A DNA stretch of 61,826 nt from a virus (lineage: Duplodnaviria; Caudoviricetes), in the IMG/VR virus record IMGVR_UViG_3300021957_000032, positions 1 through 61,826 of that record; one strand, given 5' to 3'. Numbering within the stretch: the first letter of the stretch is position 1; every line of letters begins with the position of its first letter. Positions 7,501 to 27,613 of the stretch are shown here, piece after piece. The position numbers and the translations under genes are program-made. The notes beneath the pieces were generated by a model. That model did no database searches. It had not been told where the DNA came from and was given only the letters and a program-made list of their open reading frames with translations.

Positions 7501-10500
7501 ATACCACTTCTGAGACAGAAGTGATGAGTGTGAACAAGGAAAGAGTAGACTCTATTGTCGATGGTATTGTTAAGAAAACAAAAAGCCGAAATGTAGGAGA
7601 AAGCACTAACCCTCAAAAAGTTGCAGACAACGCAATTGAATATATAAAAGGTTCTAAATTATTTGAACAGTCAAATGATATAGAAAGAGAAAATATAATT
7701 AGAGATGTTAGCAAACAACTAGGTGTAGAAATAAAACCTCCTACTGCAAAAAAATTATTAGGCATTAAAAGAATAGGTAAGCCTAAGACTATTAAAGTAA
7801 AAAGTGACTACGCAGCAATGAAGAAGGATCTTCAAAAAGAAGCGAAGATTGCTAGAGATGCTAAGAACGATGTAAACAGCAGAAGAAAAGGGTTACAGAA
7901 TGCTATAGATTTAGTTGTAAAAGCAGGTAACATTACTACTAAAAAAGCCAACACATTGCTGAAAAAAGTTTCTAATGTAAATCTCTATAACGCCAAGAAA
8001 GTTCAAGACGTAGTAGATTTTACTACAAGAGCAATGAATGATGCAGAGTATTCTAAAAAGTTAGATAAGGCAAAGTCAATTCAGAAAGCTATTAAGAAAA
8101 AGCTAAAAGGTAAAGAAGCAGGTTTATCTGATTCTGCTAAAAAGTTTAGTGAAGTTAATCCGAGTAATGTAGCTGATATTGATGTGTATTTAGAAAAGGC
8201 TAATGAAGTAAGCAAGGGATTACAACCAACTAGAAAACCATCTAAGGGAGAACTTAAAGTAAGTAAGCCTTTTGATATAAAGAAAATGGATGAGTATTCT
8301 AAAAAGGAAAAAGAATTAGAAGCAAAAAGAAACTATGAGCTTGCAAAAGAATCTTTCCAAGAACTAACAGGTCTAGAGCCAGGAGATTTAACTCTTGACG
8401 AAATGAAAAAGATGATGTATGAGGTAGATGGAAACGTAAAAACTGATGAAGCTAAAGAAAAGTTTGAAAAAGAAAAAGCTGCTACAATTGATAAAGCTGT
8501 AAAAAATGCATTTAAGAATACTAAAATAAATATAAAGGGTGCTATAGAGTCAGGGGATATAAAAGTTACCAAAGAACAAAAGACTTTGATTGACAAATTC
8601 CTAAACATGAATTTAGATTTAATGACTACTAAGCAAAAAATGGAAGCATTAGATTCAATTGTAAACTTTGAACTAAACCAATCGACAGGTGGAATGCAAG
8701 CTGCATTGAGTCAACAAGTTGGTAATCTCAATATGCAAAAATTAAAAAACAAAGGGATAAAGTCTAGTGAAAAAAGCACAAGCTTAGGTAGACTTTGGAA
8801 CAAATATATTTCAACATTGCCCAATGCATTTGAACTTGTTTTTGCATCACAACAAAAAGCTAGAGCTGTAATGGATGCTATGGGTCTTGATGGGATTATA
8901 AATGGTTCTGCAAAAGCTCAAACCGAAGGAGTTAATGTAGAAAATGAATACGCAAATTCTTTTGGTAAAAAGAAAATGAAAAGTGGAATTTATTTTGATT
9001 TACAAAATGATACTGAAAGAGGAATATTAGCAGAGGTTAGAAGAGTTACACCTGGGACAGAAACTGAACAACAAGCTGAGTTTGAAAAGAGTAAAAAACT
9101 AGTCAAAGATAGTTACGAAGCTTTATTAAATTCATCAGACAAAATAAAAATAAAAAAAGGAGAGGCTATAAAAGAACAATACGAAAAACTTTTAAAAGAC
9201 TCAAAAAATATTGCAGAGGTTGAAAGCAAAGCAGATCCTGTGAATCTTCAGGGTGTAGAATATGTAACTGATTTATGGGCTAAAAAATACCCTGAGCTTG
9301 CAGACGTTTCTTTAAATGTATATAACAGAAACTTAGGTAGTGATTTAAACTATACACCTAGAAATTTTCAAAAGTTAAAGGATGCAGAGGATACTAGAGA
9401 TATAACTGAACCTGTATTTAATCCAAGTGGCAATAAAGAAAATGCTTACGACAAAGAAACAGGTGTTTTAAAACCCACAACAAAACCAAATAAACTTCCA
9501 AAAAATAAAGTATTGAATTTAAGTTTTGATTCTCAGAACATGAATAACTATAAAGCTGCTTTAACAGATATTTATACAGCATCTTCAATACAGCAAGTAA
9601 AAGGAGCTAGACAATCTAAAGCTTTTAATGAAGTATTTACAAATGAAGGGTCTAAAGAAATTCTAAAAGACAGGGTAAATAATTATGTTGATTCAAAAAG
9701 AGGCAAGAACTATTTAGATAAGAGTCAAAAAAGATTTTTAAGAAGGCTAAATAAAGTAGCTACACTAGGTGTGTCTAGAGTTTTAGGTGGGCCTACTCAA
9801 ATGCTTAAGCAAGTTATTCCTATATTTAATACAGGAGTTAATGCAGGTTTGGTAAACACATTAGAGGGAACAAGGCTAATGTTCAACCCTGATGTTAGAA
9901 AAGCAATAAATAATTCAGGCCTACCTATTGCAAATCGAGGTATACAGTCTCAAGCAGACATTGAAAATGTAGATAGTAGAATTGGTAAAAAAGCTAATAC
10001 TAATACAGGTAAAGCTATTGATGTTGCTGATAAGATAAATAAAAAGACATTAGAGTATTTCTTAGTTGCTCCTGATGTTGCAACTGCCAAGGCTTCTTTT
10101 ATTGCTTATTATTTAAACGCAATGAATAAGAAAGGTGTTAAAACGAGCGAGATAGATTTTACAAAACCTCTTGATAAAGAAGCTGCACAATTTGCACAGC
10201 AACAAGTAGATAGACAGCAAAACACTTCTGACCAAGATTTACAAGGAGAATTATTTACTGACCAAAATGCAGGTAAACAAATTTTAAGGAAAACATTATT
10301 TCCATTTGCAAACTTCTTGTTAAATCAAAAAACAAGAATGTATTCAGACGTTAACACTTTATCTAGTAAGACTACTCTTCCAGGAGATAAAACTAGAGCT
10401 ATTAAATCTTTAGGTGGGTTAGCTGCTGAAACAGTAACTTTTAACGCTGTTGGATTAGGAATAACTCAAATGCTTAGTGCTTTAGCTAGAGAGGTTTCAG

Positions 10501-11213
10501 GAGAAGATGAAGACGATCCTAACTTAAGTAGGGCTAAAAACGTTAAGAAAAAAAGAGAAGCTGAAGAAAAACAAATGATGAGCAGAATAACAGGAAGAAT
10601 TGGAAACATGATTGCAGATGTAGCAGTTCCTGTTCCTATTTTAAATGACGAAACTTTAAATCAGATAAATGGTCTTATGAGTCTTTTTCAAGAAGGCGAT
10701 GATAATCCATTTCAGTTTTTTGCTAAAACAGAGAAAAAAATACTTGACCAGGCAGGTACTTTAGGAATTGGGCCAAAGAAAGCTATGATTCTTAAAGATA
10801 TGATAATGACAATTCAATCAGGTGAATATACTGGGTCATACGCAGGAAAGTCTTATAGTAAAAAATTAACTCCTGAAGCTATTGACAAGTTAACAACTAT
10901 AGCTGTTACTTATGCTATGCATTCAGTAGGTGTGCCTTTTATGAATATGAGTGAGGTAGGTTATGTTTCCGAAAGAGCTTTCAAGAATATAACTAAAATG
11001 ACCGAAAAGAAGAAGAGGTATGACATTGAAGCTGATGCGATTGAAAGACTTAATGATAGGCAAATAAAAAACCCTAGCAGTATTTTGATAGAACAAGAAA
11101 TGAAGAAAATTAGAAAAGAAAACAGAGGAGATAACTCACCTACAAAACGTGATGATAAAACTTTTAATCCTAGTGGTAAAGGAAGTGGTTCATTTACTCC
11201 GAAATCTTTTTAG
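4584..11213 (+). CDS. Giant putative internal virion (ejection) protein
   Basis: 2209 aa, last late gene; N-terminal YTKSF(D/E)EF repeats; C-terminal AQQQVDRQQ...LFPFANF region typical of large core proteins. Confidence 0.6.
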   Translation: MEELYNKLFEAGEYTKSFDEFVQQYGDAEKSEKLFKGLSQTGDYTKSFEEFKSQYGFAEKKNSNSTSEEVVTESTTNVETNPSSLDSSSTTTSVDIPLVEEPLVDFPNAPERKGVLENEDGSVSTHKMRTETDGKGNWFSFPTIFQNEDGSFVDMSEQAESDWESVYAEAKNRGEVIDFSKDKESAIKYGKGAWKQKYNANKKNNLLEESGYLAYVNDPERKKFMSILDTSSEPNPNVSDYLKKKYEKQYGFVNPETGKTEFKKESEVNPSLLEAIKEYDSMVGDIKAPNYVDVEIDDDDYSKLGNNVKNILRKQEIDVEDYLKWQKKNTRNETSVYKWMKKLLPNEEGDQYYEEKNAYEKVQSYKAAQLNQIAKRLGKIQSTMNLTSDRNELRKLEKEADEVRKEFYSKVQSVTETINDFPKFKEYTEDADLRRRKAMYLAAQEGGLSEGGQGMVELLSVTGNGLSGFATDILAGVPAFFDQRIATMGGDNKFDGKGVLKGLEEMLTNSAESLEASTGAVQRQAFIEGKPVFQGGKRYIVDGNGTVYDQNTNIRMDGIIPNDTIKKIVSLSKDVKETEVNWTGGSVLQGGVSTLVNLFALIRAGGKVKGTLGLKGPKAGALGMGIASFTSSVAGNVEDVRSQLVASGMTEKEALDIAVNAGQAIATLDGIFSGLAGGNEKLLIGFQGIKDQIKNLAVKKGKDFTVKQLVDKGKGLVKENAKELFIEELPVYFSEKGINHLVNRHIGNDVLNDKITKAGITETVVMTVGATSTLGAKKLLSGNKRANLVRLAAANVQDLQATLDVLVKEGSLTEIEASNAYTEIYNAQSAELKTQGTVKMTENIEPAADLLTERQNLINKKQGLEGPGKLDIDKQIAAVDQQLDALYEKDKIEVQEQLKKENDAIQEPSTEKQVLQDDAGSETVGKETEVGLPEVGKGDIESETTQQTETESETKTDQNVDTTTKTDSEQLTNTTSETEVMSVNKERVDSIVDGIVKKTKSRNVGESTNPQKVADNAIEYIKGSKLFEQSNDIERENIIRDVSKQLGVEIKPPTAKKLLGIKRIGKPKTIKVKSDYAAMKKDLQKEAKIARDAKNDVNSRRKGLQNAIDLVVKAGNITTKKANTLLKKVSNVNLYNAKKVQDVVDFTTRAMNDAEYSKKLDKAKSIQKAIKKKLKGKEAGLSDSAKKFSEVNPSNVADIDVYLEKANEVSKGLQPTRKPSKGELKVSKPFDIKKMDEYSKKEKELEAKRNYELAKESFQELTGLEPGDLTLDEMKKMMYEVDGNVKTDEAKEKFEKEKAATIDKAVKNAFKNTKINIKGAIESGDIKVTKEQKTLIDKFLNMNLDLMTTKQKMEALDSIVNFELNQSTGGMQAALSQQVGNLNMQKLKNKGIKSSEKSTSLGRLWNKYISTLPNAFELVFASQQKARAVMDAMGLDGIINGSAKAQTEGVNVENEYANSFGKKKMKSGIYFDLQNDTERGILAEVRRVTPGTETEQQAEFEKSKKLVKDSYEALLNSSDKIKIKKGEAIKEQYEKLLKDSKNIAEVESKADPVNLQGVEYVTDLWAKKYPELADVSLNVYNRNLGSDLNYTPRNFQKLKDAEDTRDITEPVFNPSGNKENAYDKETGVLKPTTKPNKLPKNKVLNLSFDSQNMNNYKAALTDIYTASSIQQVKGARQSKAFNEVFTNEGSKEILKDRVNNYVDSKRGKNYLDKSQKRFLRRLNKVATLGVSRVLGGPTQMLKQVIPIFNTGVNAGLVNTLEGTRLMFNPDVRKAINNSGLPIANRGIQSQADIENVDSRIGKKANTNTGKAIDVADKINKKTLEYFLVAPDVATAKASFIAYYLNAMNKKGVKTSEIDFTKPLDKEAAQFAQQQVDRQQNTSDQDLQGELFTDQNAGKQILRKTLFPFANFLLNQKTRMYSDVNTLSSKTTLPGDKTRAIKSLGGLAAETVTFNAVGLGITQMLSALAREVSGEDEDDPNLSRAKNVKKKREAEEKQMMSRITGRIGNMIADVAVPVPILNDETLNQINGLMSLFQEGDDNPFQFFAKTEKKILDQAGTLGIGPKKAMILKDMIMTIQSGEYTGSYAGKSYSKKLTPEAIDKLTTIAVTYAMHSVGVPFMNMSEVGYVSERAFKNITKMTEKKKRYDIEADAIERLNDRQIKNPSSILIEQEMKKIRKENRGDNSPTKRDDKTFNPSGKGSGSFTPKSF
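7291..7497 (+). CDS. Small basic protein (MPFKSQAQR-type) nested in the +1 frame of the giant gene
   Basis: 68-aa ORF MPFKSQAQRSKCY...KWEKET...KLPNRLK; A-rich upstream sequence; locally raised GC. Confidence 0.65.
   Translation: MPFKSQAQRSKCYRMMQEAKLLGKKPKWDCLKWEKETLSQKLPNRLKPKVKRKQTKMSTRLRRQILNS
7523..7536 (+). repeat. 14-bp motif GATGAGTGTGAACA, copy 1 of 5
   Basis: Exact match to the copies at 15702 (inverted), 19235, 24262 and 27515. Confidence 0.9.
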
Positions 11214-11310
11214 GCTCATCTAACAATTGCTGAAGCTTTCTTATTAAATTATAATTAGGCTTTGGCTTGTATTTTTCTTTTAGTATTTGTTCTTTAATAT
11301 GATCTTTCAT
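11194..11310 (-). CDS. Small hypothetical protein (38 aa, below the ORF-track cutoff)
   Basis: MKDHIKEQILKEKYKPKPNYNLIRKLQQLLDEPKKISE; overlaps the upstream gene end and fills the gap between convergent genes. Confidence 0.4.
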   Translation of the reverse strand: MKDHIKEQILKEKYKPKPNYNLIRKLQQLLDEPKKISE

Positions 11311-11611
11311 TTTCTATTTCTTTTTGTAGGTTAGCTAAGGCTCTCCAAGCTACTTTAGCCGAGTGTCTTATTCCATCTGTATCTACAGTACCACATTCCA
11401 TTAAGTGCCTTGTAAGGGCATCTAATTCGTCTCCTGACTTATCTCTATCCCAATGTAATGGAAGGTCAGGGTTGTGTTGTTGTTGTCCTGCATAACTGCA
11501 TTGAGCTATTTCTCTTATAGCGTCAGGGAAGTACATTAAAACTCCTGTATAGATTGGAGTTTCTTTTCTTTCTTTTGCTTTATCCATAAAGCGCCATTCT
11601 GGTTTTATCAT
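11294..11611 (-). CDS. DUF5664 / dATP-dGTP diphosphohydrolase-like domain protein
   Basis: FPDAIREIAQCSYAG...HWDR..S.DELDALTRHL...H.AKVAWRALA; start at 11611 couples to the upstream stop (TAATG). Confidence 0.7.
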   Translation of the reverse strand: MIKPEWRFMDKAKERKETPIYTGVLMYFPDAIREIAQCSYAGQQQHNPDLPLHWDRDKSGDELDALTRHLMECGTVDTDGIRHSAKVAWRALANLQKEIENERSY

Positions 11612-12627
11612 TAAAATATATGTGTTAGTCTTGCAACTTGACCATGTTCTTTGGAGTGTATGAAACCTTCTACTGCTTTTACACCACCTATTCCATATCC
11701 GTTTCTGTGATGCCAAGAGTCTGTTCCACTTGGTGATCGTAAAGACTCTACAGTAATTCCATGATAGTCTTTACTAGACTTGTGGTGTATGTGATGAGTA
11801 TAAACATATCTATGTTTTGTTTCTGCCCATTCTTTAGAAAATTCATTTGCCATAATTAATGGTAGGTCAGCTAGCTTAGCTCCATCTCCATGGGTAGTTC
11901 CTATGAGGTTTTGTCCGTACATAAATCCTTTTCTGTGAGCAATGCTACAGTCAAATGTTATGTTCTTACATTTTCTAAACCAAGACTGTATTGAATCAGA
12001 TAACATAAATCCAGACATATAATCATGGTTGCTTGGATTGTATACAAAGTGTACATCTGCAACACTTATTAATGTTTCTAATATATCTACATAAAGTTTT
12101 TTAGCTGTAAGAAAATTATCATACCACATTCCATGCGTATCTTGAGGAGTTCCTGCTGTAGTAACTCGTTTAGGTGTATCTATATGAAGTATATCATTAC
12201 CTCCAACAAAAAGTATCTTATCTATTTTAAATCCGTTTGACTTTTGAAGTATACCTTGAACACCTTTCTTAACTCTTTTTACAGCTATCTGCGAATCATA
12301 ATCTTCACCTGTTTCAAAACTACTAGATAGTTTTCCAATATGAATATCTGCAGGATCAATAACTAGTAAGTGTCCGTTCTCGCTTTTAGTTCTTTGTATT
12401 TTCTTGTAAGAAGGCGAATGCTTATCCATCGCCTTGATAATATCATCTCTAAGTTCTTCAGGTGATACTCCTTTGTTTTTTACGTGAAGAGAAAAGTGTT
12501 TTCCTTTATGCCAGTAATGGTCTACATCTTTCATTGGGATACCCATTGCTTTACATTCTTTTTGTAAAGCTCTATCCTTTTGAATTATGTCATTCTCTCG
12601 CTCTGTTAATCTAGGTCTATATTTCAT
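11611..12627 (-). CDS. Calcineurin-like metallophosphoesterase
   Basis: Motifs DIHIG, GNDILH, SNHD, THGD, HHIHH. Confidence 0.8.
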   Translation of the reverse strand: MKYRPRLTERENDIIQKDRALQKECKAMGIPMKDVDHYWHKGKHFSLHVKNKGVSPEELRDDIIKAMDKHSPSYKKIQRTKSENGHLLVIDPADIHIGKLSSSFETGEDYDSQIAVKRVKKGVQGILQKSNGFKIDKILFVGGNDILHIDTPKRVTTAGTPQDTHGMWYDNFLTAKKLYVDILETLISVADVHFVYNPSNHDYMSGFMLSDSIQSWFRKCKNITFDCSIAHRKGFMYGQNLIGTTHGDGAKLADLPLIMANEFSKEWAETKHRYVYTHHIHHKSSKDYHGITVESLRSPSGTDSWHHRNGYGIGGVKAVEGFIHSKEHGQVARLTHIF

Positions 12628-12805: not shown

Positions 12806-12873
12806 TTGTGATTGTGTTTCTTAAAACTACAAATATTTGTTTAAAAATATATTAAAAGTTATACACAAAAAAA

Positions 12874-13104: not shown

Positions 13105-13110
13105 ATTGTC

Positions 13111-13467
13111 TTAATTTATTGTTAAAAACTCTTCTTGTAATTCTTTTATTTCTTTTAATATTTGTTCTTTTCTAAAATTCCCCCTAGATAATTGCTTTAT
13201 AGTTTTATCATATGTTTCTTTAAAATAAGGGTCTGTTTTAATTAAAAAATCTACATCTCTTAGTCCATTTATAACTGAAGCATGGTTCTTCTCAAACTCA
13301 TTAGCTATTGCCTGCAGCGGCAATCCATGTAGGGTTCTTAATATATGATAAGCAATTCGTCTTGCATCAACAAATTCTCTTTGCCTGGTTTTTTCTTTTA
13401 TGTTTCTAATGCCTGAAGAATATTCAACAGCATCTATAACGTAGTCAAACAGCTCTCCTCTTTTCAT
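13111..13467 (-). CDS. DnaA domain IV-like (C-terminal HTH) DNA-binding protein
   Basis: R.REFVDARRIAYHILR....LPLQAIANEFEKNHASVINGLR follows the DnaA-IV pattern. Confidence 0.7.
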   Translation of the reverse strand: MKRGELFDYVIDAVEYSSGIRNIKEKTRQREFVDARRIAYHILRTLHGLPLQAIANEFEKNHASVINGLRDVDFLIKTDPYFKETYDKTIKQLSRGNFRKEQILKEIKELQEEFLTIN

Positions 13468-14613: not shown

Positions 14614-15852
14614 TTAATTTAAAGTTAGCAAATCTCGTTTGAAATGATTTAAAGTATAATCTTTTTTCTTACTTACTGACTTGTATATTTTACTTTCTAT
14701 ACCACCTTCCGTAAAAATCCAGAACACTTCATTCTCTAATCTTTCTTTAGTTGTCATTCTATCTCTAGACTGCCAATAACTTGTGGCACTAAAGTCTATG
14801 TTATAATATATTAAATACTTAGCTTTTCGTAAGGATATACCCTCACGACCTGACACAATTTGTAAGGCTATAGACTTACTTGTGGTATCAAACTCTTCAA
14901 GATCCGTACATACTTGGTCTCCATAAACTTCCTTAATAGCATTAAGTTCTTCTTTAAACTTATAGAATATTCCTATCTTATTACAACAAAAATTATCGTA
15001 TATGTATTGAGCTTTAAACAAGTCTAACACCATAGAATTACCACTCTCAAACTTAACCGTACCACTATACATTTGATGCAGCTTCTGCATAAGCTTTACA
15101 CTTGTGTCTGCAAGTATAACCTCCTCAGAACCTTCAACTACTAAATCTTTTTTTAATTTAGAACATAGTGAATGTATTTTGTCTGGAGCATCAACAAACA
15201 ATACTTTTTCTTTAATAGAAGATTCAAACCCTGCCTCCTTCTGTGTATATGAAATAGTGTAAGGATTCATTTTATCAATAATAGTATCCTTAGCATTTGA
15301 ATAGTCGTTTACCATAAATCCTCCTATTCTTTTGGTAGTAACTGTTACATAATCTTTAGCAAACTTATAAAAGTTAGAATACTTATTGAATGGATTATTT
15401 GGAATTGCATATACTTGGTGGTACATTTGACTATATGACTCAGGGGTTGGTGTGCCTGAAAGCAATATAACATATGGTTTGTTGCTTCTTATAAGTTGAG
15501 ATACAGTTTTAGCTCTCTTACTTGGTTTTGGAAAAGCTCCCATCCCATGGGCTTCATCACAAACAACGGCATCCCAACCTCCTTGGTCGACCTTGTGAAG
15601 TGATTCGTAGTTGATTACTTGTAGTTCATAGCCTGGCTTCAATAAATTGTAATCAGATTCTATTGAACTTATTGCTCGCTTTTTAGTGATGAACAATACT
15701 CTGTTCACACTCATCATTTTATCTAAAATTCCTAGAGAGGTAAGTGTCTTACCTGTTCTTACTTCCATAGATAGATACAGAAACTTCTTAGTTAATAAAA
15801 CTTCTGTGCCACTATCTATAATGTTTTGTTGGTAGTCTCTAAATTGTATCAT
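14614..15852 (-). CDS. SF2 (SNF2-like) helicase
   Basis: RDYQ, VRTGKT (Walker A), DEAH, SGTP, EGISL, QSRDR. Confidence 0.85.
   Translation of the reverse strand: MIQFRDYQQNIIDSGTEVLLTKKFLYLSMEVRTGKTLTSLGILDKMMSVNRVLFITKKRAISSIESDYNLLKPGYELQVINYESLHKVDQGGWDAVVCDEAHGMGAFPKPSKRAKTVSQLIRSNKPYVILLSGTPTPESYSQMYHQVYAIPNNPFNKYSNFYKFAKDYVTVTTKRIGGFMVNDYSNAKDTIIDKMNPYTISYTQKEAGFESSIKEKVLFVDAPDKIHSLCSKLKKDLVVEGSEEVILADTSVKLMQKLHQMYSGTVKFESGNSMVLDLFKAQYIYDNFCCNKIGIFYKFKEELNAIKEVYGDQVCTDLEEFDTTSKSIALQIVSGREGISLRKAKYLIYYNIDFSATSYWQSRDRMTTKERLENEVFWIFTEGGIESKIYKSVSKKKDYTLNHFKRDLLTLN
15702..15715 (-). repeat. 14-bp motif GATGAGTGTGAACA, copy 2 (inverted)
   Basis: Plus strand reads TGTTCACACTCATC. Confidence 0.9.
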
Positions 15853-18889: not shown

Positions 18890-18903
18890 ATCAACATGGT
18901 TAG

Positions 18904-19179
18904 TTAAAATGGTAAATCTGCCTCTTGAACAGGTGCTTGGTTTGGAGCTGTGTCCACGCCATTAGTCTGTTTCTTAGGGACAAACGTATCAAGTTCAATG
19001 TATGGCTTACCCCCCTTGCTATTCAGCACGTTGAGGTTTACCCATCCATTTTTTTGATTGTTATTTAAAAACGCAACTGCTTCTTCAACTTTTACGCTGA
19101 TGTTACCAATTACGAACTCTGGTGCGTTCTCTCTTCTCTTGAAAAGAAATCCGTCTGCAAATACTTTGTCTTGTGACAT
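18904..19179 (-). CDS. Putative single-stranded DNA-binding protein
   Basis: 91 aa with a flexible C-terminus ending DLPF; follows the Sak/RecE-like genes. Confidence 0.6.
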   Translation of the reverse strand: MSQDKVFADGFLFKRRENAPEFVIGNISVKVEEAVAFLNNNQKNGWVNLNVLNSKGGKPYIELDTFVPKKQTNGVDTAPNQAPVQEADLPF

Positions 19180-19197
19180 ATTAATAGTATTAATGTT

Positions 19198-19229
19198 GAG
19201 CGCTGAGTTGGAGCAACGCCTCTGACTCC
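19198..19229 (-). promoter_or_regulatory. H-type RNA pseudoknot in the SSB mRNA leader
   Basis: GGAG-tca-GAGGCGTTG-CTCC-aact-CAGCGCTC: S1 GGAG/CTCC, S2 GAG(G)CGTTG/CAGCGCTC. Confidence 0.5.
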
Positions 19230-19234
19230 TTTAT

Positions 19235-19248
19235 GATGAGTGTGAACA
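19235..19248 (+). repeat. 14-bp motif GATGAGTGTGAACA, copy 3 (intergenic)
   Basis: Exact match. Confidence 0.9.
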
Positions 19249-19250
19249 AT

Positions 19251-19988
19251 TTAAAATTCTTCACGCTCTATGTACTGTGTAATGTCTTCTGCTGAGTCTT
19301 CAGCAAAGAAGGTCTTGTATACCTCAATAGCTTTCAACACCTTCTCTCTACCTCTTAGTATAGTCTCAGGAGATGGCTTAGCTATCTTAAGTTTCAATGT
19401 AGTTTTATCTATAATGTAAAACTCTACAGGCTTACCGAACAGCTGCTCATAGATATATGCTTGGCTGTCGTAGTTGTAGTCGTTAGCACTCCACTTAAAC
19501 TTATCGGCATTTCCTGATGTCTTAATGTCAATTACCTTATTATCTGTAACGATATCTGCCTTACCTTTCCATTCCATACCAAAGATGGTAGCAATAGCAG
19601 GTTTCTCATACTCGTTACCTTCTGCGTATATGTCTGTATACATTTCAAAGTTAGACTTCATAGCATCAACCCACGTGTTAATCTTCTCTACTTCTTTTGT
19701 AAGCAGTACATCGTATGGATCTAGGTTATTGTCATTAATGTATTCTTTAAAACCTTTAGTGGCCCTACTAGATACATCCATTATACTATATGTATCTAAC
19801 TTCTCTGGCTCTAACATAGCCGTATGAAAATAGCCACCCTCTAGTAAGGGTAGGCTTTTTTCTTTGTGTCTGAATTTTCTAGGGTTTTTAAGTAAGCTAT
19901 AAATATCTGAGTTAGATAAATACTGCTGACCAACCTTACCATAGTAATTACTATCGTCTTTGAGTTGTTCTATAATATTATTTTGCAT
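19251..19988 (-). CDS. RecE/exonuclease VIII-like PD-(D/E)XK exonuclease (DUF3799-like)
   Basis: LSNSDI, G.YFHTAMLEP, KGKADI, IDIKT, Y..QAYIY. Confidence 0.8.
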   Translation of the reverse strand: MQNNIIEQLKDDSNYYGKVGQQYLSNSDIYSLLKNPRKFRHKEKSLPLLEGGYFHTAMLEPEKLDTYSIMDVSSRATKGFKEYINDNNLDPYDVLLTKEVEKINTWVDAMKSNFEMYTDIYAEGNEYEKPAIATIFGMEWKGKADIVTDNKVIDIKTSGNADKFKWSANDYNYDSQAYIYEQLFGKPVEFYIIDKTTLKLKIAKPSPETILRGREKVLKAIEVYKTFFAEDSAEDITQYIEREEF

Positions 19989-20574: not shown

Positions 20575-20580
20575 GTTTAC

Positions 20581-21260: not shown

Positions 21261-21489
21261 TTTTAGATTTTGATAGATTAAACTTAGTTTTTTTAGATTT
21301 TGATAGATTGAACTTAGTTTCTTCAGCACCTCCAAATATCTCACCCCACGCTGTGAATATTTCATTCAATACTAAGCGCTGTTGGTTATGATAATACTCA
21401 GCTACCTGGTATTCATCGTCAATAAATGATGCTAATGTTTCTGATTTCTGTTCACGTTCTCGGTTGAACATTTCTTTTGATTTTCCCAT
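21241..21489 (-). CDS. Hypothetical protein
   Basis: 82 aa with TKFNLSKSK duplicated at the C-terminus. Confidence 0.6.
   Translation of the reverse strand: MGKSKEMFNREREQKSETLASFIDDEYQVAEYYHNQQRLVLNEIFTAWGEIFGGAEETKFNLSKSKKTKFNLSKSKNEKRNI
21261..21320. repeat. 30-bp tandem duplication
   Basis: TTTTAGATTTTGATAGATTRAACTTAGTTT twice, one mismatch. Confidence 0.95.
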
Positions 21490-21513
21490 TGTAATTAAAT
21501 TATATTGTGTTTG

Positions 21514-21544: not shown

Positions 21545-21557
21545 CTTTTTTTTGTTT

Positions 21558-22163: not shown

Positions 22164-23200
22164 ATCTCTAGGTTTTTTAATATGTGTTCGATTACTTTAA
22201 CTGTCCAACCATTACCCAACATCTTATATCGTTGTGCGTTTGACACTCCTTCTGTATAATTATCAGGTACAGTTTGAAGTCTCTCACATTCTATAGGCGT
22301 GAGCTTCCTCCAATTGTATTTCTCATTGATGATACCTTGATTGGGTGAGATAGTGGTGAGGCAATGTGCTTTCTCTGTCAATGCCCTACCTCTTCTAGTT
22401 GTGCTAGTGGGATAAGATAAGTCTAGACCTTCTCCAATACCTACGGCAGCGTAACCTTTCTTTGTGGCTTCAGGGAAGCATACCTTGTCTTCTATCCTAA
22501 TCATAGTACGTTGACTTCTTTCTATGCTGTTCCACCATACAGCACCATCGTATCGTGCTGTAAGACAATACGCTTTGCCTTTGTTGGTTACCATTCTCTC
22601 ATCAACAATAGAACCTTCAAGCTCTCCTTCTGTTTGAATAATATCTTTCAATATTATGTGTTGATTGATTGGCTCAAAGAGGTAAGGTATATTTGTCCAA
22701 TAGTATCTCTTCCTGGTTTGTGCAGATACAAGTGCTGAGTCTATGTATATCGCTTCAACACCTAACACATTTGATATAGTATCTCTGTGTTCCTTTGTCA
22801 TCTTTACATTCTCTAACATAAAGTACTTAGGTTTACACTCCTTTATTAACCTAACAAACTCAAAGAATAACTTACTCCTTGGGTCATCAAAGTTTAGGTT
22901 CTTACCTGCTCTACTAAATCCTTGGCAGGGGCTACCACCTATGATAAGATCAATCTGTCTCGACTTAGGAATATCTTGTATATATCCTGAGTCTTTCTCT
23001 ACTACTAAGCAGCCTCTATAATCAGAGTAACTTACTTTGGTAACGTCCCCAACATGAATCATGTCAGGGAAGTTTTTCTTTGCTATCTTTATAGCATACT
23101 TGTCAATCTCTGATGCATAGTAGTTGTCTACTTTTACACCAAGATTCTTGAGGGCTATCTGTCCACAGGACATGCCATCGAATAATGATAGTACATTCAT
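22160..23200 (-). CDS. DNA (cytosine-5)-methyltransferase
   Basis: LSLFDG, GGSPCQ, LENV, Q.R.RYYW, LTPIECERLQT, LGNGW. Confidence 0.92.
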   Translation of the reverse strand: MNVLSLFDGMSCGQIALKNLGVKVDNYYASEIDKYAIKIAKKNFPDMIHVGDVTKVSYSDYRGCLVVEKDSGYIQDIPKSRQIDLIIGGSPCQGFSRAGKNLNFDDPRSKLFFEFVRLIKECKPKYFMLENVKMTKEHRDTISNVLGVEAIYIDSALVSAQTRKRYYWTNIPYLFEPINQHIILKDIIQTEGELEGSIVDERMVTNKGKAYCLTARYDGAVWWNSIERSQRTMIRIEDKVCFPEATKKGYAAVGIGEGLDLSYPTSTTRRGRALTEKAHCLTTISPNQGIINEKYNWRKLTPIECERLQTVPDNYTEGVSNAQRYKMLGNGWTVKVIEHILKNLEI

Positions 23201-23428
23201 ATTAATTTGATTTATTTATGATTTGAAATCCTAGTTCAACAAAAGGTTCGTCACTATCTAAACCACCAGTATATATTTCCCCAACGAATCTAACATCTAA
23301 ATCATTCTTATCCCCATCATCTTCGCTCCCATCATTAGGGATTAGTTTCAATAACACCTCGGTTTTATTGTTCTCGTACTTCTCCAATACTCTAATCAGT
23401 TTTTTAACATTCATATTAATTTGATTTA
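23193..23428. repeat. 22-bp direct repeats flanking gene 23202-23414
   Basis: ACATTCATATTAATTTGATTTA at 23193-23214 and 23407-23428. Confidence 0.85.
23202..23414 (-). CDS. Hypothetical protein
   Basis: 70-aa ORF. Confidence 0.6.
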   Translation of the reverse strand: MNVKKLIRVLEKYENNKTEVLLKLIPNDGSEDDGDKNDLDVRFVGEIYTGGLDSDEPFVELGFQIINKSN

Positions 23429-24075
23429 ATTATATCTTTAACTGCTTCTTCAAAGTTGTCGCCTAAATACTCTTGAAGGTTTGCATCTAGATAATATCCT
23501 TTTAGATGTATTCCCTCAGCATTTGTATATTTGTTTGGAAGAAAATATATCTCATCATTATCTGTGTCCTCCCAATCTGGTAAGTCCCATTCAAGTGAAT
23601 AAGTTTCTTCTCCATTATCAAACTCAAACTCTGCACCCCAACCTTGTTCCTCTTCAAAATAATAACTGAAAGTTGGTATGTCTTTGACAAAATGCTCTAA
23701 GATGATTTCTTCATCAATCGGCCCCCATGCTGAGGTAAATCTGTACGTTCCGTCATCGTACTCATTTTCATAGCAACCCCACTTTGTACCCCAATTCTTG
23801 TAAGCCCAATCATACCAATTGTCATACCCATATCTATCTAGCAGGTATTCTCTTCTGTCTTTTGTGATTGGATAGGACTTATACTTGGCTGTCTCGTTTA
23901 GTTTCATCTGCTTTGCGTATTCCTGCTCGCTCACTACTCTGCATGGACTAGTGGTCTGTATTAGTTCTTCAGGCATTGGCCTGTAGTATCGACATAGCCC
24001 TACTTTGGCTATCTCTTCTAACTTTTTCTCGTATTTTTCTTCTACTGTAATCTGTGCGTAACAATGATTCGGCAT
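23416..24075 (-). CDS. DUF1281 / YubB ferredoxin-like domain protein
   Basis: MPNHC, PMPEEL, WYDW...NWGTKW, F.SAWGP, YFEEE. Confidence 0.7.
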   Translation of the reverse strand: MPNHCYAQITVEEKYEKKLEEIAKVGLCRYYRPMPEELIQTTSPCRVVSEQEYAKQMKLNETAKYKSYPITKDRREYLLDRYGYDNWYDWAYKNWGTKWGCYENEYDDGTYRFTSAWGPIDEEIILEHFVKDIPTFSYYFEEEQGWGAEFEFDNGEETYSLEWDLPDWEDTDNDEIYFLPNKYTNAEGIHLKGYYLDANLQEYLGDNFEEAVKDIIKSN

Positions 24076-24087
24076 AATATATTAAAT

Positions 24088-24261
24088 TTAAAGTTACCTC
24101 CTTGGAGGGGCGTCTTTCCGTCCTGTCAGTCTTATTGTAATTTGTGTATGATTAAACCCTTTTCTCATAGGCGTGAGTCTACACTTTAACTGTTAAGCAT
24201 TACAACGGCCTACATTAGCGACAACTAAGGATTATTATATGACTCACTTCAATAACTTTAA
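24088..24261 (-). ncRNA. Candidate structured leader or sRNA
   Basis: ~200-nt intergenic gap closed by a 9-bp helix TTAAAGTTA/TAACTTTAA; internal GTGAGTC/GACTCAC and CCTC-CAAG-GAGG. Confidence 0.45.
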
Positions 24262-24275
24262 GATGAGTGTGAACA
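24262..24275 (+). repeat. 14-bp motif GATGAGTGTGAACA, copy 4 (intergenic)
   Basis: Exact match. Confidence 0.9.
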
Positions 24276-24278
24276 ATA

Positions 24279-24551
24279 TTATTCATTGTTCAACTCATCA
24301 TACGTAGAGGTAATCTCTTCTATTATACCTCTACCTGTTCGTGTATGAAAACCATAGCTATGCAAGTATAACCCCTGCACAGGCTCATTCTCTATAAGAA
24401 AATGAAACATATCTGTAGGGTCTACGTTATGCTCCTTTGCTACTATTTCGCATGCTCTCTTTAATGAATGGCAGTCATGTCTTGACTCACCATACGTGTC
24501 AATCAGGTATGCCAGGATACCTGATGTTGACCAATTTTCTACTCTTGCCAT
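24279..24551 (-). CDS. Hypothetical early protein
   Basis: Likely start ATG 24551 (MARVENW), which avoids overlap with the upstream gene. Confidence 0.6.
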   Translation of the reverse strand: MARVENWSTSGILAYLIDTYGESRHDCHSLKRACEIVAKEHNVDPTDMFHFLIENEPVQGLYLHSYGFHTRTGRGIIEEITSTYDELNNE

Positions 24552-24561
24552 AGTGTTTAGT

Positions 24562-24831
24562 TTAACAGGCTGCCCACCCAATGAATACATAATGTGTATC
24601 TGTCTCGTAATACACACACTCTCTCTTGTCTACATTGTCCAATGCCTCATCATAAGCATCGTCATCTTTAGGCTCGGATATCTTACCTTCTAATGAACAC
24701 GTGGTAATTGTGCCATTGTACGGATCGTGTCCGTACTCATACGACTCCTCTTCTCTTAAGGATTGGTATGCTTCTCTTGCTGATTTGTACTGCTTTTTAC
24801 TCGCTTGGTAATGAATGTTTGTTGCTCCCAT
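24562..24831 (-). CDS. Hypothetical early protein
   Basis: 89 aa, MGAT...YEYGHDPYNGTI...FIGWAAC. Confidence 0.7.
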   Translation of the reverse strand: MGATNIHYQASKKQYKSAREAYQSLREEESYEYGHDPYNGTITTCSLEGKISEPKDDDAYDEALDNVDKRECVYYETDTHYVFIGWAAC

Positions 24832-25318
24832 AATTTAATTGTGTTTATTTATTATTATTATATTCAAATCCTTTTTCTGTTAGTGTTTCCATTATGTCTT
24901 CAATAATCTCGTCTTTCATTATATCATATAGAGCTGTCAATGCATCTTCAACGTATTGTACCTCTATGTCATCAACATATATGGTATCAATATGAGTCTC
25001 TTGCATTGCCTCCATCAATACATCTGATAAACTGTGGTCGTAGTAATGTACGTCTGAACCTACATCTATATCATTATTAGGTTCGTGTGCTATCCATACC
25101 TCGTACCCATCTGCTGTGTCTTGTTGGTAGATAACAAAGTCACGTCTGTATGCATCGTCATCTACTAATTCAAATCCGAAATGAACCTGAAGTTGTGCAT
25201 ATCCTTTATCAGGGTTGTCATAATAGTCAGCCAACACATCTCTGTTGAATAACTCCTGTGAGATTATCTCTTCGGTAATTTCTTTTACTTGTTTTCCCAT
25301 AATTTAATTGTGTTTATT
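24826..25318. repeat. 24-bp direct repeats flanking gene 24845-25300
   Basis: TCCCATAATTTAATTGTGTTTATT at 24826-24849 and 25295-25318. Confidence 0.85.
24845..25300 (-). CDS. Highly acidic hypothetical early protein
   Basis: 151 aa, D/E-rich. Confidence 0.7.
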   Translation of the reverse strand: MGKQVKEITEEIISQELFNRDVLADYYDNPDKGYAQLQVHFGFELVDDDAYRRDFVIYQQDTADGYEVWIAHEPNNDIDVGSDVHYYDHSLSDVLMEAMQETHIDTIYVDDIEVQYVEDALTALYDIMKDEIIEDIMETLTEKGFEYNNNK

Positions 25319-25481
25319 GTTTATTAACTCTATGTTTTTTTACATCTTTTAATGCTTGCATTACATTATCTCTTTCTGTTTCAGAAGATAACGCACAGTT
25401 TATAAGCCACTCTATTTCTTCCCATGGATTAGAGCATTCTTCTCTGAACCATGCGTAATAAGTATCTATTAATTCCTCCAT
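25314..25481 (-). CDS. Small hypothetical protein (55 aa, below the ORF-track cutoff)
   Basis: MEELIDTYYAWFREEC...KHRVNKQ; fills the gap between genes. Confidence 0.6.
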   Translation of the reverse strand: MEELIDTYYAWFREECSNPWEEIEWLINCALSSETERDNVMQALKDVKKHRVNKQ

Positions 25482-25501
25482 AACTCTATTTATTTAATTG
25501 T

Positions 25502-25768
25502 TTATAAATGTCCTCCTATTCCCCACTCTTCGCATTCGTATCTCCACTCATGCTCTGCTTCTGAGTCCTCGTGTCCAGGGTGGTCGTATAATCCTGTCCC
25601 AAGAATAAACTCTGTTTCGTTTAGCTTGTGGTCTATGTCTTCTATCCACTGATCTTCAATAGATAGTATGTATTCATCAATCTTGTCTTCTTCAATAGTG
25701 TCAGGGATTTCTATCTCCAACTCTACAAACTTGTGGTATACACTACGTTGTTCGATTTTTACTTTCAT
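25502..25768 (-). CDS. Acidic hypothetical early protein
   Basis: 88-aa ORF. Confidence 0.65.
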   Translation of the reverse strand: MKVKIEQRSVYHKFVELEIEIPDTIEEDKIDEYILSIEDQWIEDIDHKLNETEFILGTGLYDHPGHEDSEAEHEWRYECEEWGIGGHL

Positions 25769-25787
25769 TATTTATTTATTTAATTGA

Positions 25788-25985
25788 TTAGTATCTACTT
25801 GCTTCGCTATTCCAAAATAAACTTTTTAGTACTGCCTCTTCTTTTCTTGACAATACTCTAGTGTCAGGGTCTCCCTTTATTTGTAAGTGAGATGACCAAT
25901 GTGTCCTTGATACTTCATAGGTGTCCTTGTCATCTACTATTACTAATAAAGTTCCTTGCATTGTGTGTGTGTGGGTTACTTTCAT
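25788..25985 (-). CDS. Hypothetical early protein
   Basis: 65-aa ORF. Confidence 0.6.
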   Translation of the reverse strand: MKVTHTHTMQGTLLVIVDDKDTYEVSRTHWSSHLQIKGDPDTRVLSRKEEAVLKSLFWNSEASRY

Positions 25986-25988
25986 AAT

Positions 25989-26216
25989 TTAATTATTTTC
26001 TCTTGCGTATTCTATTACTTGCTGATATACTTTGTCCTCTACAAAATCCCAAAAGAAATCTGTAATGTCCATTCCATTTAAGTCTACGGATTCAATCTCC
26101 ATATCCTCTGCAGGTGGAAGCTCGTATGAACCTGATGTGTAGTAATATGAGTAGTCTATACTCATCTCGTAATGGTCTTCACTAATTGTGTACGTACCTT
26201 TGCTATTTATATTCAT
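25989..26216 (-). CDS. Acidic hypothetical early protein
   Basis: 75-aa ORF. Confidence 0.65.
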   Translation of the reverse strand: MNINSKGTYTISEDHYEMSIDYSYYYTSGSYELPPAEDMEIESVDLNGMDITDFFWDFVEDKVYQQVIEYARENN

Positions 26217-26220
26217 CTGT

Positions 26221-26370
26221 TTAGTATTTATATTTAATATCGCTTATCTCTCTAACTATAATCTCATAAGAATGGTCGCAATACATTATTGCCCATTGCT
26301 TTGCATCGTCTAAGGTTTTTGCTAGTATGAATGTTACTTCATCTGCATTGTATATCATGAACTTACTCAT
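26221..26370 (-). CDS. Small hypothetical protein (49 aa, below the ORF-track cutoff)
   Basis: MSKFMIYNADEV...DIKYKY; fills the gap between genes. Confidence 0.6.
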   Translation of the reverse strand: MSKFMIYNADEVTFILAKTLDDAKQWAIMYCDHSYEIIVREISDIKYKY

Positions 26371-26372
26371 AT

Positions 26373-26576
26373 CTATTTATTTAATTGATTAATATTCATC
26401 TCTTCAATCTCCCACACAAAATTATCATGAGGATTGGTTATAATTATTTCGTTCCATGTTGATTCAGCCTTGGCTTTCTGTAGCTTCTCCATGCTATCAA
26501 ACACACCAATTATCTCAGTCGATGGAATTAACCCCCATACCTCCTGAGTTCGTTCAAGTTTTAATAAGTATATCAT
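26373..26576 (-). CDS. Hypothetical early protein
   Basis: 67-aa ORF, ATGA overlap with the upstream gene. Confidence 0.6.
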   Translation of the reverse strand: MIYLLKLERTQEVWGLIPSTEIIGVFDSMEKLQKAKAESTWNEIIITNPHDNFVWEIEEMNINQLNK

Positions 26577-26815
26577 ATCGTATAGATTGTATGTTCATCA
26601 TTTCCACCTCCAATGAATGCTGCACCCCCATCGTTACCCTCATCATCTGATTGTAATACTAGGTATGTTCCATCTGTAAACATTATTGCTAGTGGTCTTT
26701 TGTACCAACCAAATGCATCTGCCTCTTCTCTATTCATGTATCTGCAAGAGTCTATCTTCTTTCCTTTTAAGATTTTCTCAAATTTTAGTCCGTGTTTTTC
26801 GTCTGTTGTTCTCAT
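26573..26815 (-). CDS. Hypothetical early protein
   Basis: 80 aa, LKGKKI...DDEGNDGGA. Confidence 0.7.
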   Translation of the reverse strand: MRTTDEKHGLKFEKILKGKKIDSCRYMNREEADAFGWYKRPLAIMFTDGTYLVLQSDDEGNDGGAAFIGGGNDEHTIYTI

Positions 26816-27069
26816 AATTTCTCTAGTGGTTTTATGTATTGATTATTATATTCTTCTCTCTCTTTCCACAACCTGTCTTCCAGTTCTAGGTTTTCATCTG
26901 CAAAATGACACGCTTGATTGTATTCATTGGCGTGTTGTTCTGCAATGTAATCAGCGAATGATTCAAACCATTCTAATTTGTCGTCTGTTCCCCTTAGCTT
27001 TGCCTCCAACTTTTTGATGTGTTTTTGCATCGCTTGAATTCTGTGGTAATTGAAATTGTCTGCTGTCAT
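26812..27069 (-). CDS. Hypothetical early protein
   Basis: 85-aa ORF. Confidence 0.65.
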   Translation of the reverse strand: MTADNFNYHRIQAMQKHIKKLEAKLRGTDDKLEWFESFADYIAEQHANEYNQACHFADENLELEDRLWKEREEYNNQYIKPLEKL

Positions 27070-27071
27070 TT

Positions 27072-27383
27072 CTATTTATTTAGGTTAAACATTGTTTTCT
27101 CTATCATTAATTCTATTGGCTTTCTTTCTGTGTACTCTTTGGTTTTTTTGTTGTAGTATGATTGCTTTATTACTTTACCATCTACCTTCAATCTAAAGCT
27201 CAGCCAATCTCCAAATTGTTTTTTGGTCTGTTCGATTGTACAGAAGTGGTGCGAGTTCTTGCTTCCACTCCCTACTTTCATATTGATACTTGAGTGGTCA
27301 TGCACTCCGTATGATTTGTTTCCGTTTGCATATGCACAAGAATTTATCTCGTTCCATATTGAGTATTGTCTTCCGAATCCCAT
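27072..27383 (-). CDS. Hypothetical early protein
   Basis: 103-aa ORF. Confidence 0.65.
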   Translation of the reverse strand: MGFGRQYSIWNEINSCAYANGNKSYGVHDHSSINMKVGSGSKNSHHFCTIEQTKKQFGDWLSFRLKVDGKVIKQSYYNKKTKEYTERKPIELMIEKTMFNLNK

Positions 27384-27397
27384 ATCTTTTTTATTTA

Positions 27398-27613
27398 TTA
27401 GTTATACATTCCAAACGCCACATTGTTATCAAGTCCGTTTGCTATTAGATTATAAATTAATGTTACAAATCCTACTACAAATAGTATTGATAAACCCATA
27501 AGAAAAACTCTTAAGATGAGTGTGAACACCGTTCCCCTGAACGTTGTTACAACTTGTCCTTGTCTGTCTCTTACTTGTGTAGTCTCTGCTAATTCTCTGA
27601 TGATTGTTCCCAT
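27398..27613 (-). CDS. Small membrane protein
   Basis: 71 aa with a long hydrophobic helix. Confidence 0.65.
   Translation of the reverse strand: MGTIIRELAETTQVRDRQGQVVTTFRGTVFTLILRVFLMGLSILFVVGFVTLIYNLIANGLDNNVAFGMYN
27515..27528 (+). repeat. 14-bp motif GATGAGTGTGAACA, copy 5
   Basis: Exact match; TTAA upstream is shared with copy 4. Confidence 0.9.

Follow-up and report, generated by a model that had tools for sequence, protein, structure and literature searches.

What keeps a single asymmetric word of 14 nucleotides (nt) in place among the early genes of a phage, and what reads it there? The question is raised by GATGAGTGTGAACA, which recurs in a 61,826-bp stretch of DNA (the window, by which we mean this whole stretch), a complete IMG/VR virus record from a podophage of the Flavobacteriia type. 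Structural and late genes occupy its plus strand, including the terminase (46325..48550), the portal (48551..51007), GroEL/GroES and a lysis cassette. The early and replication block lies on the minus strand, from 28.0 down to 11.3 kb, and encodes an exonuclease, a VRR-NUC nuclease, an SNF2-type helicase, an AEP primase/SF3 helicase, exonuclease VIII, a Sak annealing protein, a DNA methyltransferase and two DnaA-domain-IV-like proteins. We find that a clade of uncultured marine Flavobacteriia podophages keeps the 14-mer at 4-6 places in the early/replication third of the genome, and that it is a signal under selection as nucleic acid, not a coding feature. As to its role, we tentatively favor, at somewhat less than an even chance, a factor-dependent site of polar punctuation or shut-off, stoperator-like, for transcription along the early strand.

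The original prediction listed copies at 7523 (+), 15702 (-), 19235 (+), 24262 (+) and 27515 (+), and all five are exact when both strands are counted. It also held that the rest of the genome is free of the word, and a scan of both strands finds no copy in the window beyond 7.5-27.5 kb. Chance does not account for this number, as had been claimed: 100 dinucleotide-preserving shuffles gave a mean of 0.00 exact copies and a maximum of 0, and in a strand-collapsed k-mer count, the check that had been suggested, GATGAGTGTGAACA is the sole non-low-complexity 12-, 13- or 14-mer present five times. At up to two mismatches there are six matches against 0.37 expected (shuffle maximum 2). The sixth, GATGAGTATAAACA at 11793 (+), is the variant that had been reported near that position; it does exist, with two mismatches, but we treat it as due to chance, since no counterpart at up to two mismatches stands at the matching place in four related genomes (G002, G003, G005 and G007) and a single such match fits the shuffle range. 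Elsewhere in the genome (61.6 kb) the 7-mer core GTGAACA occurs only twice, at 21449 and 46968. Avoidance of this core outside the motif was considered on a first-order model (2 observed, 8.5 expected) and dropped, as the expectation falls to 5.5 in an order-3 model and genomes without the motif are equally short of it. Rfam has no gathering-score match over the whole window and none at E<=5 that overlaps a copy in 18.7-30.6 kb, and neither strand of the 14-mer is present in the literature searched.

The five copies, located by exact scan, sit in different surroundings. Copy A (7523..7536, plus) is read in frame as V-MSVN-K inside the gene of a giant virion-block protein of 2209 amino acids (aa) (4584..11213, plus), so placed that TGTTCACACTCATC falls on the minus, early-gene strand. 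Copy B (15702..15715, minus) encodes M-MSVN-R between motifs I and Ia of the SNF2-type helicase (open reading frame, ORF, 14614..15852, minus); it is the single window copy on the opposite DNA strand, and it has a partial inverted partner, the arms spanning 15686-15717. Copy C (19235..19248, plus) is intergenic by the ORF list: the stop codon of the exonuclease gene (19251..19988, minus) precedes it by 2 nt, and the GGAGTCAG leader of gene 18904..19179 follows it at 5 nt. Copy D (24262-24275) ends 3 nt short of the stop codon at the end of ORF 24279..24617 (minus) and, with a near-perfect inverted partner (24285-24299), makes up 24262..24299 (plus); on the minus-strand RNA this region is predicted to form a 15-pair stem with that stop codon in the loop, in both the minimum-free-energy and the centroid fold. 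Copy E (27515..27528, plus) lies in the ORF of a 71-aa membrane protein (27398..27613, minus), where it codes VFTLI within a hydrophobic stretch. The claims that two copies are intergenic, beside a stop codon and a structured leader (19235 and 24262), that three lie inside unrelated genes, and that on the local mRNA three read UGUUCACACUCAUC and two its complement all agree with the ORF list. A coding explanation by way of ORFs opened by the motif's own ATG at C, D and E was rejected, as these are 7-75 aa long and unconserved.

The word is conserved well beyond the window. Searching IMG/VR with the motif returned, among the matches listed, contigs of 50-62 kb with several copies each. Whole-record counts are 3-4 in G001, G002, G003, G005, G007 and G008 and 2 in G009, and the copies in relatives are syntenic with window copies A-E. 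Nucleotide identity of motif-bearing genomes to the window is 78-90%, with G004 at 68.5%; G009 has no nucleotide similarity to it and shares with it little beyond the terminase, the portal and a small basic protein. When 61 Sak-encoding IMG/VR loci were compared for the motif at up to two mismatches, it was present in 28 of the 29 whose Sak is at least 67% identical, the exception being a 5.5-kb fragment; exact copies are found in none of the 32 loci at 64% or below, and five of these have a single 2-mismatch match, which is about the chance level. The accepted variants are TATGAGTGTGAACA, TATGGGTGTGAACA, GATGATTGTGAACA and GATGATAGTGAACA. In the wider group the motif is carried by G036 (primase 53% identical), G004 (62%) and G009, and is missing from MW202828.1 (primase 64%), G037 (57%), G043, G048 and Flavobacterium phage elemoF, the last with one 2-mismatch match and no comparable repeated word.

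What selection holds in place is the nucleotides. Site A is syntenic and exact in G001, G002, G003, G005, G007 and G008, and there the motif is identical across six lineages while the 300-nt flanks are 30-65% identical in many genome pairs; these flanks also switch partners between lineages (G001 against G003, left 44%, right 89%). At site B the motif columns have a pairwise identity of 0.94 versus 0.82 in the flanks, and the third codon positions, the synonymous sites to which the original prediction had pointed, stand at 0.86 (n=5) versus 0.61 in the flank (n=40). The encoded peptide varies: nothing is encoded at C and D, MSVN at A and B, and VFTLI or LFTLI at E and in the signal peptide of a lytic enzyme, and other lineages have GVHTH (G002, G005 and G007) and CSHSS (L177). 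The GVHTH sites are related to copy E, the same DNA being read in another frame. For G007 the idea of a D/E recombination hybrid was rejected, as homologues of the genes between D and E are kept there; only one gene's tail runs through the motif in that genome. Because the same 14 nt are non-coding or read in three frames while the flanks diverge to 30-65% identity, we conclude that the 14-mer is a nucleic-acid signal under selection. The prediction of a functional cis-acting signal thus stands in its general part, the motif being conserved among relatives, both in non-coding DNA and in several frames, and its count lying far above background, whereas the readers that it named lack support.

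The helicase gene and copy C illustrate how copies may come and go. At site B, motif-free relatives have L-x-V-N where the clade has M-MSVN, so that copy B arose in place by a few substitutions and one codon. The helicase gene of G004 has a flipped copy about 70 codons (~200 nt) downstream of site B, made by substitutions only (VSQLI to VFTLI), and that of L177/L178 has a flipped copy made by a 3-codon insertion (CSHSS). The gene holds three separate solutions to having one copy within the same 250 bp. Copy C is gained or lost among close relatives with its leader kept, being present in L168 and missing from L167, and it is also absent in L157, L161, L164, L169, L176 and L179; since these phages retain the leader and the downstream gene, single copies can be lost.

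The word is not a host genomic one. In 401 genomes of the family of a Lacinutrix metagenome-assembled genome (MAG) we found no enrichment, with 3 single matches versus 7 matches in 6 genomes for a reversed control word, and a host genomic motif was rejected. The Lacinutrix MAG itself has no motif copy. A 4.8-kb contig binned in this Lacinutrix sp. MAG (L278, NZ_JASJHV010000138.1) encodes a GroEL 90% identical to the phage GroEL; the contig probably comes from a phage and was binned together with its host, and so gives a clue to the host genus. At the matching places of motif-free loci, lineage-specific replacement words were sought and only weak candidates of a CCGACAT type came up, in L187 and L189.

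We pooled 113 sites into 38 flank classes (mutual flank identity below 55%), or contexts, which are phylogenetically non-independent and were placed on a crude gene model (ATG-started ORFs of at least 50 aa), so that ratios among them are descriptive. The conserved information consists of the 14-mer with an A at -2 (24/38), a T at -1 (25/38) and an A at +15 (27/38, never T), for a consensus of (A)(T)[G/T]ATG[A/G][G/T][T/A]GTGAACA(A). No further position within 45 nt is conserved among the 38 classes, and the element is therefore one compact asymmetric block of about 16-17 nt, with neither dyad symmetry nor a bipartite partner. Its strand is nearly fixed: TGTTCACACTCATC lies on the early-gene strand in 33 of the 38 contexts, copies in the oppositely transcribed giant gene included, and the split within single genomes ranges from 3:0 to 4:1. 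Measured against local ORFs, TGTTCACACTCATC is sense in 28 contexts, complement in 8 and ambiguous in 2. The early-sense contexts comprise 16 intergenic copies and 12 inside ORFs, and 12 of the 16 intergenic ones begin 1-9 nt past the upstream stop codon, each of these nearer to the stop than to the next start. The motif also tends to find a partner nearby, a stretch of 6 nt or more that perfectly complements part of it lying within 60 nt in 17 of 38 contexts, against 5.9 +/- 2.1 (maximum 12 in 200 draws) for random places in the same genomes; 13 of these 17 complements are on the side that is upstream in the early-sense RNA. In some relatives ATTTT follows the motif.

The compact asymmetric block, a one-strand rule that holds across convergent genes, the proximity to stop codons, the stems, the confinement to the early third and the toleration of copies inside needed genes together fit a polar signal of the early strand. 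The tolerated copies bear on the need for a factor: G004 and L177 have an early-sense copy within the helicase gene, such a copy also falls among the first 15 codons of a lytic-enzyme gene, and since a constitutive terminator inside needed genes would do harm, dependence on a factor is suggested. We infer that transcription is affected, that a factor is needed and that the word is read as either DNA or RNA. A polymerase or transcript moving in the early direction would meet 5'-TGTTCACACTCATC-3' a few bases past a stop codon, where the motif would often form the 3' arm of a stem-loop whose 5' arm is the end of the upstream gene. Such transcription likely starts, to judge from a pattern scan, at a host-type Bacteroidota -7 element (TATGTTTG, 28101..28108, minus) upstream of the first early ORF, and would then meet copies E, D and C. 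A sequence-specific factor might sit on the DNA and form an oriented roadblock, in the manner of the cluster A mycobacteriophage repressor at its stoperators, or might alternatively bind the nascent RNA; with either outcome early expression would be stopped, paused or cut at the borders between cistrons. Copy A lies in the giant gene, which is transcribed the other way, and could then act as a backstop against early-strand read-through, while the inverted copy B in the helicase gene would act on transcription arriving from the opposite direction.

Several observations weigh against polar punctuation of this kind. In five of the 38 contexts the word is on the opposite strand. Copy B in the helicase gene, which is well conserved, is one of these, and an inverted and conserved copy fits only as a block to opposing transcription; the flipped helicase copies of G004 and L177 look instead like a place-specific, orientation-free function of the DNA. 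The number of sites is low (4-6) and confined to one third of the genome, as against more than 20 genome-wide for stoperators, and the contexts that support the grammar have the shared ancestry and the crude gene model already described. The region of 11-30.5 kb has 20 terminator-like sites (a hairpin plus a T run), and on the early strand no copy falls on any of them. Four RNA runs, available as assembled contigs, decide nothing either way. In run X16 the contig 18899-19224, over the gene downstream of copy C, has a depth of 18.8 versus 6.5 for the contig of the upstream gene, a contrast that runs opposite to a stop signal and is a very weak argument; this contig breaks off about 10 nt beyond copy C, as contig 24250-24566 does 12 nt beyond copy D, and since both ends fall in strain-variable spacers they may be assembly breaks. 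A contig of run X17 (19080-19278) reads through copy C.

A further point on the same side is that no phage protein tracks the motif, by presence or by recognition region, when motif-bearing genomes (G000, G001, G002, G005, G036, G004 and G009) are compared with motif-free ones (MW202828.1, G037, G043 and G048), a comparison that small, fast-evolving proteins could escape. Three proteins had been put forward as readers, those encoded at 13111, 20955 and 32413. The first, a DnaA-domain-IV protein (PF08299, E 3e-11, above the cut-off), has no homologue in motif-bearing G002 and G005; the second (PF08299 at E 1.2e-4, below the cut-off) is present in all close motif-bearing genomes, yet its recognition region fails to separate the motif-free ones; and the third occurs in both groups. 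Proteins of the 13111 and 20955 types are spread across both groups without a separating recognition region, and DnaA-IV-like proteins are present in every genome of the group; the motif matches 7 of the 9 positions of the DnaA-box consensus. The primase, with BT4734-like, PriCT_1 and DUF5906 domains, ends in a domain modelled as a winged helix (predicted local distance difference test, pLDDT, 79-94 over residues 100-160). This model aligns to the P4 origin-binding domain 1ka8 with Z 5.2 (root-mean-square deviation 3.4 over 73 residues), an alignment tied with those to other winged helices (Z 5.0-5.8). As a reader it was rejected, because motif-free MW202828.1 and G037 have a winged-helix sequence near that of G000 and motif-bearing G036 a strongly different one.

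The lack of a tracking protein would be explained if the motif were a strand-polar signal directed at a host machine and needing no phage-encoded reader. We regard this version as unlikely, though it would also account for three de novo builds within one gene, and for the sharing of the 14-mer by G009, G036 and G004 while the nearer MW202828.1 and G037 use other words. The motif would then be a cis-acting pause, termination or anti-termination element for the host RNA polymerase or another host nucleic-acid enzyme, or else a one-strand signal used during genome entry or replication, and phages of the same Flavobacteriia host would have acquired it convergently.

Other functions could place an asymmetric word in this part of the genome. 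One is replication, which we consider rather unlikely to be the answer. The word would here be a binding, loading or priming site of the phage replication machinery, read by the primase-helicase (AEP primase, PriCT-1, SF3 helicase and winged helix) or a DnaA-domain-IV-like protein, or a signal for lagging-strand priming. Its reverse complement begins with TGTTCACA, an annotated P4 repeat variant; the primase has the domain order of P4 alpha, along with the 1ka8-like winged helix; copies B and C flank the primase gene in inverted orientation, 612 nt past its stop and 482 nt before its start; DnaA-IV-like proteins occur throughout the group; and a copy built three ways in the 5' third of the helicase gene is what a place-specific DNA site would lead one to expect. 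All five copies would be on the lagging-strand template if replication began between B and C and ended between A and B. Yet the copies are single and 3-8 kb apart with no clustering, copy C is dispensable in relatives, the nearness to stop codons is unexpected for such a site, and in the 31 kb of G009, which has two copies, no homologue of the primase, the helicase or Sak can be detected. The structural match is middling and to a common fold, a BLASTP comparison of the primase with P4 alpha finds nothing, and the recognition region, as said, does not follow the motif. A phage-specific promoter appears quite unlikely to us. It would be a single-block promoter firing in the early direction for an RNA polymerase that the phage encodes or modifies, on the model of single-subunit polymerases or the hairpin promoters of the N4 virion polymerase. 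A contiguous signal of ~17 nt with no separate -35/-10 partner suits this, as do the orientation with early genes in 28 of 36 assignable contexts (16 intergenic, at the upstream edge of the spacer), the hairpin potential, a giant virion protein encoded beside the early block and the presence in that block, by pattern scan, of just one intergenic host-type promoter match, that at 28108. The greater X16 depth downstream of copy C and the contig end ~10 nt past the motif point the same way, weakly. Even so, only 16 of the 38 contexts are intergenic and early-sense, 12 early-sense copies being inside ORFs (some in the first 15 codons) and 8 contexts antisense, and copy C is missing from close relatives with the same leader and gene. 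PHROGs and Pfam scans of the large ORFs show no RNA polymerase or sigma factor. The giant protein, which is hypervariable among motif-bearing genomes, was tried as a virion RNA polymerase: it has no sequence match in the PDB and contains none of the polymerase motifs looked for. Its C-terminal 1160 aa are modelled by AlphaFold2 as an all-helical solenoid (pLDDT 75.6, predicted template-modelling score 0.72) with a best Foldseek E of 0.087, template-modelling scores of at most 0.1 and no polymerase among the 50 matches listed. Over the C-terminal 1210 aa, none of the best 120 of 166 homologues is functionally named, and two carry ParBc. These results give no support to the role, though they do not prove that it is absent.

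A site at which one strand is nicked, cleaved or recombined by a small phage endonuclease is, in our judgment, improbable, although few long asymmetric sites with 33 of 38 on one DNA strand whatever the gene direction, and a site A whose flanks change partners, would be in keeping with it. The candidate enzyme is an HNH-like basic protein of 104 aa (32921..33235, plus; phrog_6437, of unknown function in PHROGs) with a D-V-S-H ... K-N-R-G stretch. This very basic protein is widespread in the phage group, is encoded in all motif-bearing genomes, and is among the few proteins shared with the distant G009 (55% identity); of the named protein-atlas clusters, HNH_3 and HNH lie nearest to it (score 0.92, to be taken as a lead only). 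The family is found as well, however, in the motif-free complete genomes G037 (63%), G043 and G048, so that of the 11 records at least 90% complete that encode it, 7 carry the motif; Pfam gives no HNH match for the protein, and neither stop-codon proximity nor hairpin enrichment would be expected of nick sites. Less probable still is the pairing tag proposed in the original prediction, by which early transcripts bearing UGUUCACACUCAUC (at C, D and E) would pair with the helicase and giant-protein mRNAs and couple their fates. The five copies do give two sets of transcripts with perfect 14-nt complementarity, both polarities are kept at syntenic sites in relatives, and in G001 a structural gene has a GATGAG-sense copy 20 nt ahead of its start codon. 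But in lineage G018 (L177/L178) all three copies are on one strand, so that early transcripts hold no partner of opposite polarity; the two copies of G009 likewise share one polarity; and the structured RNA beside copy D is absent from G001, G004, G036 and G009, leaving no shared guide scaffold. The strand rule (33/38) and the stop-codon proximity favor a polar early-strand signal over an RNA-RNA tag, for which we find no support.

Two structured leaders stand beside motif copies and are elements separate from the motif. The leader of gene 18904..19179 (19180-19234), whose product of 91 aa begins MSQDKVFADGF..., contains a hairpin (19200..19219, minus) in which, over 12 sequences, 4 of the 6 pairs show compensatory changes with 0 broken cells. 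An invariant GGAGTCAG lies upstream and the hairpin loop, CTCCAACT, is invariant too; the leader GGAG could pair with the loop CUCC in a possible pseudoknot, and the leader may thus be a translational operator. This hairpin persists in motif-free relatives. The second, before gene 23416..24075, is a non-coding leader of ~185 nt beside copy D (24076..24261, minus; fold z -3.07), with a 40-nt invariant core and a long-range stem GTGAGTC...GACTCAC that covaries in relatives (GTGAGTT...AACTCAC). It is 70-98% conserved in many clade relatives, has no Rfam match and may be a small RNA or a structured leader. It was not found in motif-bearing G001, G004, G036 and G009, for which reason the idea of a guide RNA at copy D was rejected.

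Other features of the window concern its promoters, its ends and its giant protein. Late genes have clear TTTG/TAnnTTTG promoter matches in the pattern scan. Directly after the host-type -7 element of the early block lies a tRNA-like fragment (28057-28102, minus) with a GGTTCGAATCC T-arm, which scores 28.5 bits against the Rfam tRNA model (cut-off 29) and is not called by ARAGORN. Between gene 32413..32880 (minus) and gene 32921..33235 (plus), the perfect palindrome TATCTTTGCAAAGATA at 32886-32909 consists of two overlapping divergent host-type -7 promoter elements and is likely, from this arrangement, an autoregulated divergent promoter. The window begins and ends with a 220-nt direct repeat (2-221 and 61607-61826, 99% identical), and its IMG/VR entry describes it as linear and without end repeats; the ends of G001 overlap by ~930 nt. 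Such repeats could be true terminal repeats or the overlap of a circular assembly. In relatives with a complete ORF the giant protein measures 2205-3859 aa and is mostly non-alignable between close phages, the longest figure being that of MW202828.1 (3859 aa), and its C-terminal 1160 aa are kept in at least 166 environmental proteins. Neither an integrase nor a lysogeny module was seen. In the primase, MW202828.1 is 64.7% identical and the Flavobacterium elemo phages are 41.8% identical over 35% of the protein, these being the closest named relatives.

Very little is known, to our knowledge, of how phages of marine Flavobacteriia regulate their genes, and most such phages are uncultured. In this setting a word with a clear grammar (one strand, just past stop codons, often in a stem, in the early third) that is kept in dozens of environmental genomes gives a concrete starting point from which to seek the regulator or enzyme behind the timing of early expression or replication in the group. 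It could also be used as a marker to sort uncultured phages by regulatory or host type, and should there truly be no phage-encoded reader, it would be a compact signal to a host machine and a potential genetic part for use in Bacteroidota.

How the 14-mer compares with known systems helps to place it. T7 RNase III sites and the targets of T4 RegB are, like the 14-mer, repeated signals at early cistron borders, near stop codons and often in stem-loops, and they act on early expression, as the 14-mer would. The T7 signals are defined by structure and those of RegB by a 4-nt word; here, by contrast, 14 nt are fixed, only one stem arm is conserved and no nuclease is linked to the motif. T5 and phiKMV-like phages, with podovirus or siphovirus genomes, have localized single-strand interruptions at few long asymmetric sites, nearly all on one strand. 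The present motif resembles them as a handful of long, nearly one-stranded asymmetric sites and is unlike them in hugging stop codons and in its restriction to the early third. The iterons of phage P4 resemble it in other ways. The annotated type 1 repeats of the P4 origin, which are bound by alpha, read TGTTCACC in 11 of 16 cases and TGTTCACA in 2 of 16, and the crr repeats read TGTTCACACTG, matching 10 of 11. A core word of the TGTTCACC octamer type is thus common to both, the order of functions in the initiator is the same (primase, SF3 helicase, winged helix, as PMC2777425 describes for P4 and pRN1) and sites stand on both sides of the primase gene. The P4 repeats are, however, 8 bp long with 5-6 repeats per ~100-120 bp, where our 14-bp copies stand singly, with kilobases between them; the winged-helix sequence here does not co-vary with the motif, and the two initiators share no detectable sequence similarity.

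Among relatives of the window, other words occupy what seems to be the same niche. MW202828.1 (L006/L152), which lacks the motif, has 15 copies (14 of them exact) of a 16-bp palindrome, GTGTCGTTAACGACAC, at 43745-55169 of its record, all in the early block. Nine of the 15 lie 3-4 nt past a stop codon, 15-40 nt before the next ATG and ahead of A-rich leaders, and some are intragenic; we found no printed description of this palindrome in the literature searched. It is like the 14-mer in occupying the early/replication block, mostly just past stop codons, and unlike it in being palindromic, in its 15 copies and in having no sequence in common with it. Motif-free G037 (L264-L266) has two iteron-like clusters of AATCGACAC repeats in opposite orientation, with 4 and 3 copies at ~5944-6070 and 59274-59312, which are ~7.4 kb apart across the record ends. 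The MW202828.1 palindrome and the G037 repeats suggest that the niche is conserved while the word changes among relatives.

The known parallel, on the mechanism that we tentatively prefer, is with the stoperators of cluster A mycobacteriophages. As PMC9283540 describes them, these are asymmetric 13-mers bound by a monomer, situated in short intergenic spaces, with an orientation correlated with transcription; there are more than 20 of them genome-wide, their consensus is lineage-specific and the repressor has two DNA-binding domains. The 14-mer and the sites of the L5 gp71-type repressor are alike as exact asymmetric words of 13-14 bp, each a single block with a lineage-specific consensus, dispersed over many kilobases and many of them intergenic, and perhaps also in an orientation tied to transcription (here 28 early-sense, 8 antisense and 2 ambiguous contexts by the crude gene model). 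They differ in that the window has 5 copies (relatives have 3-5 per record), in the early third only, instead of more than 20 across the genome. No integrase, two-domain repressor or other mark of lysogeny was found, in a comparison that small, fast-evolving proteins could escape; local complements are enriched here and 5 of 38 contexts inverted, and the same word occurs in distantly related phages without a shared candidate repressor. The 14-mer is thus an element of a known kind, a dispersed, asymmetric and oriented regulatory word in a phage genome, and one that departs from the known examples in its low copy number, in a strand rule that holds across opposed operons, in its one-armed stems and in its presence in distant phages with no reader in common.

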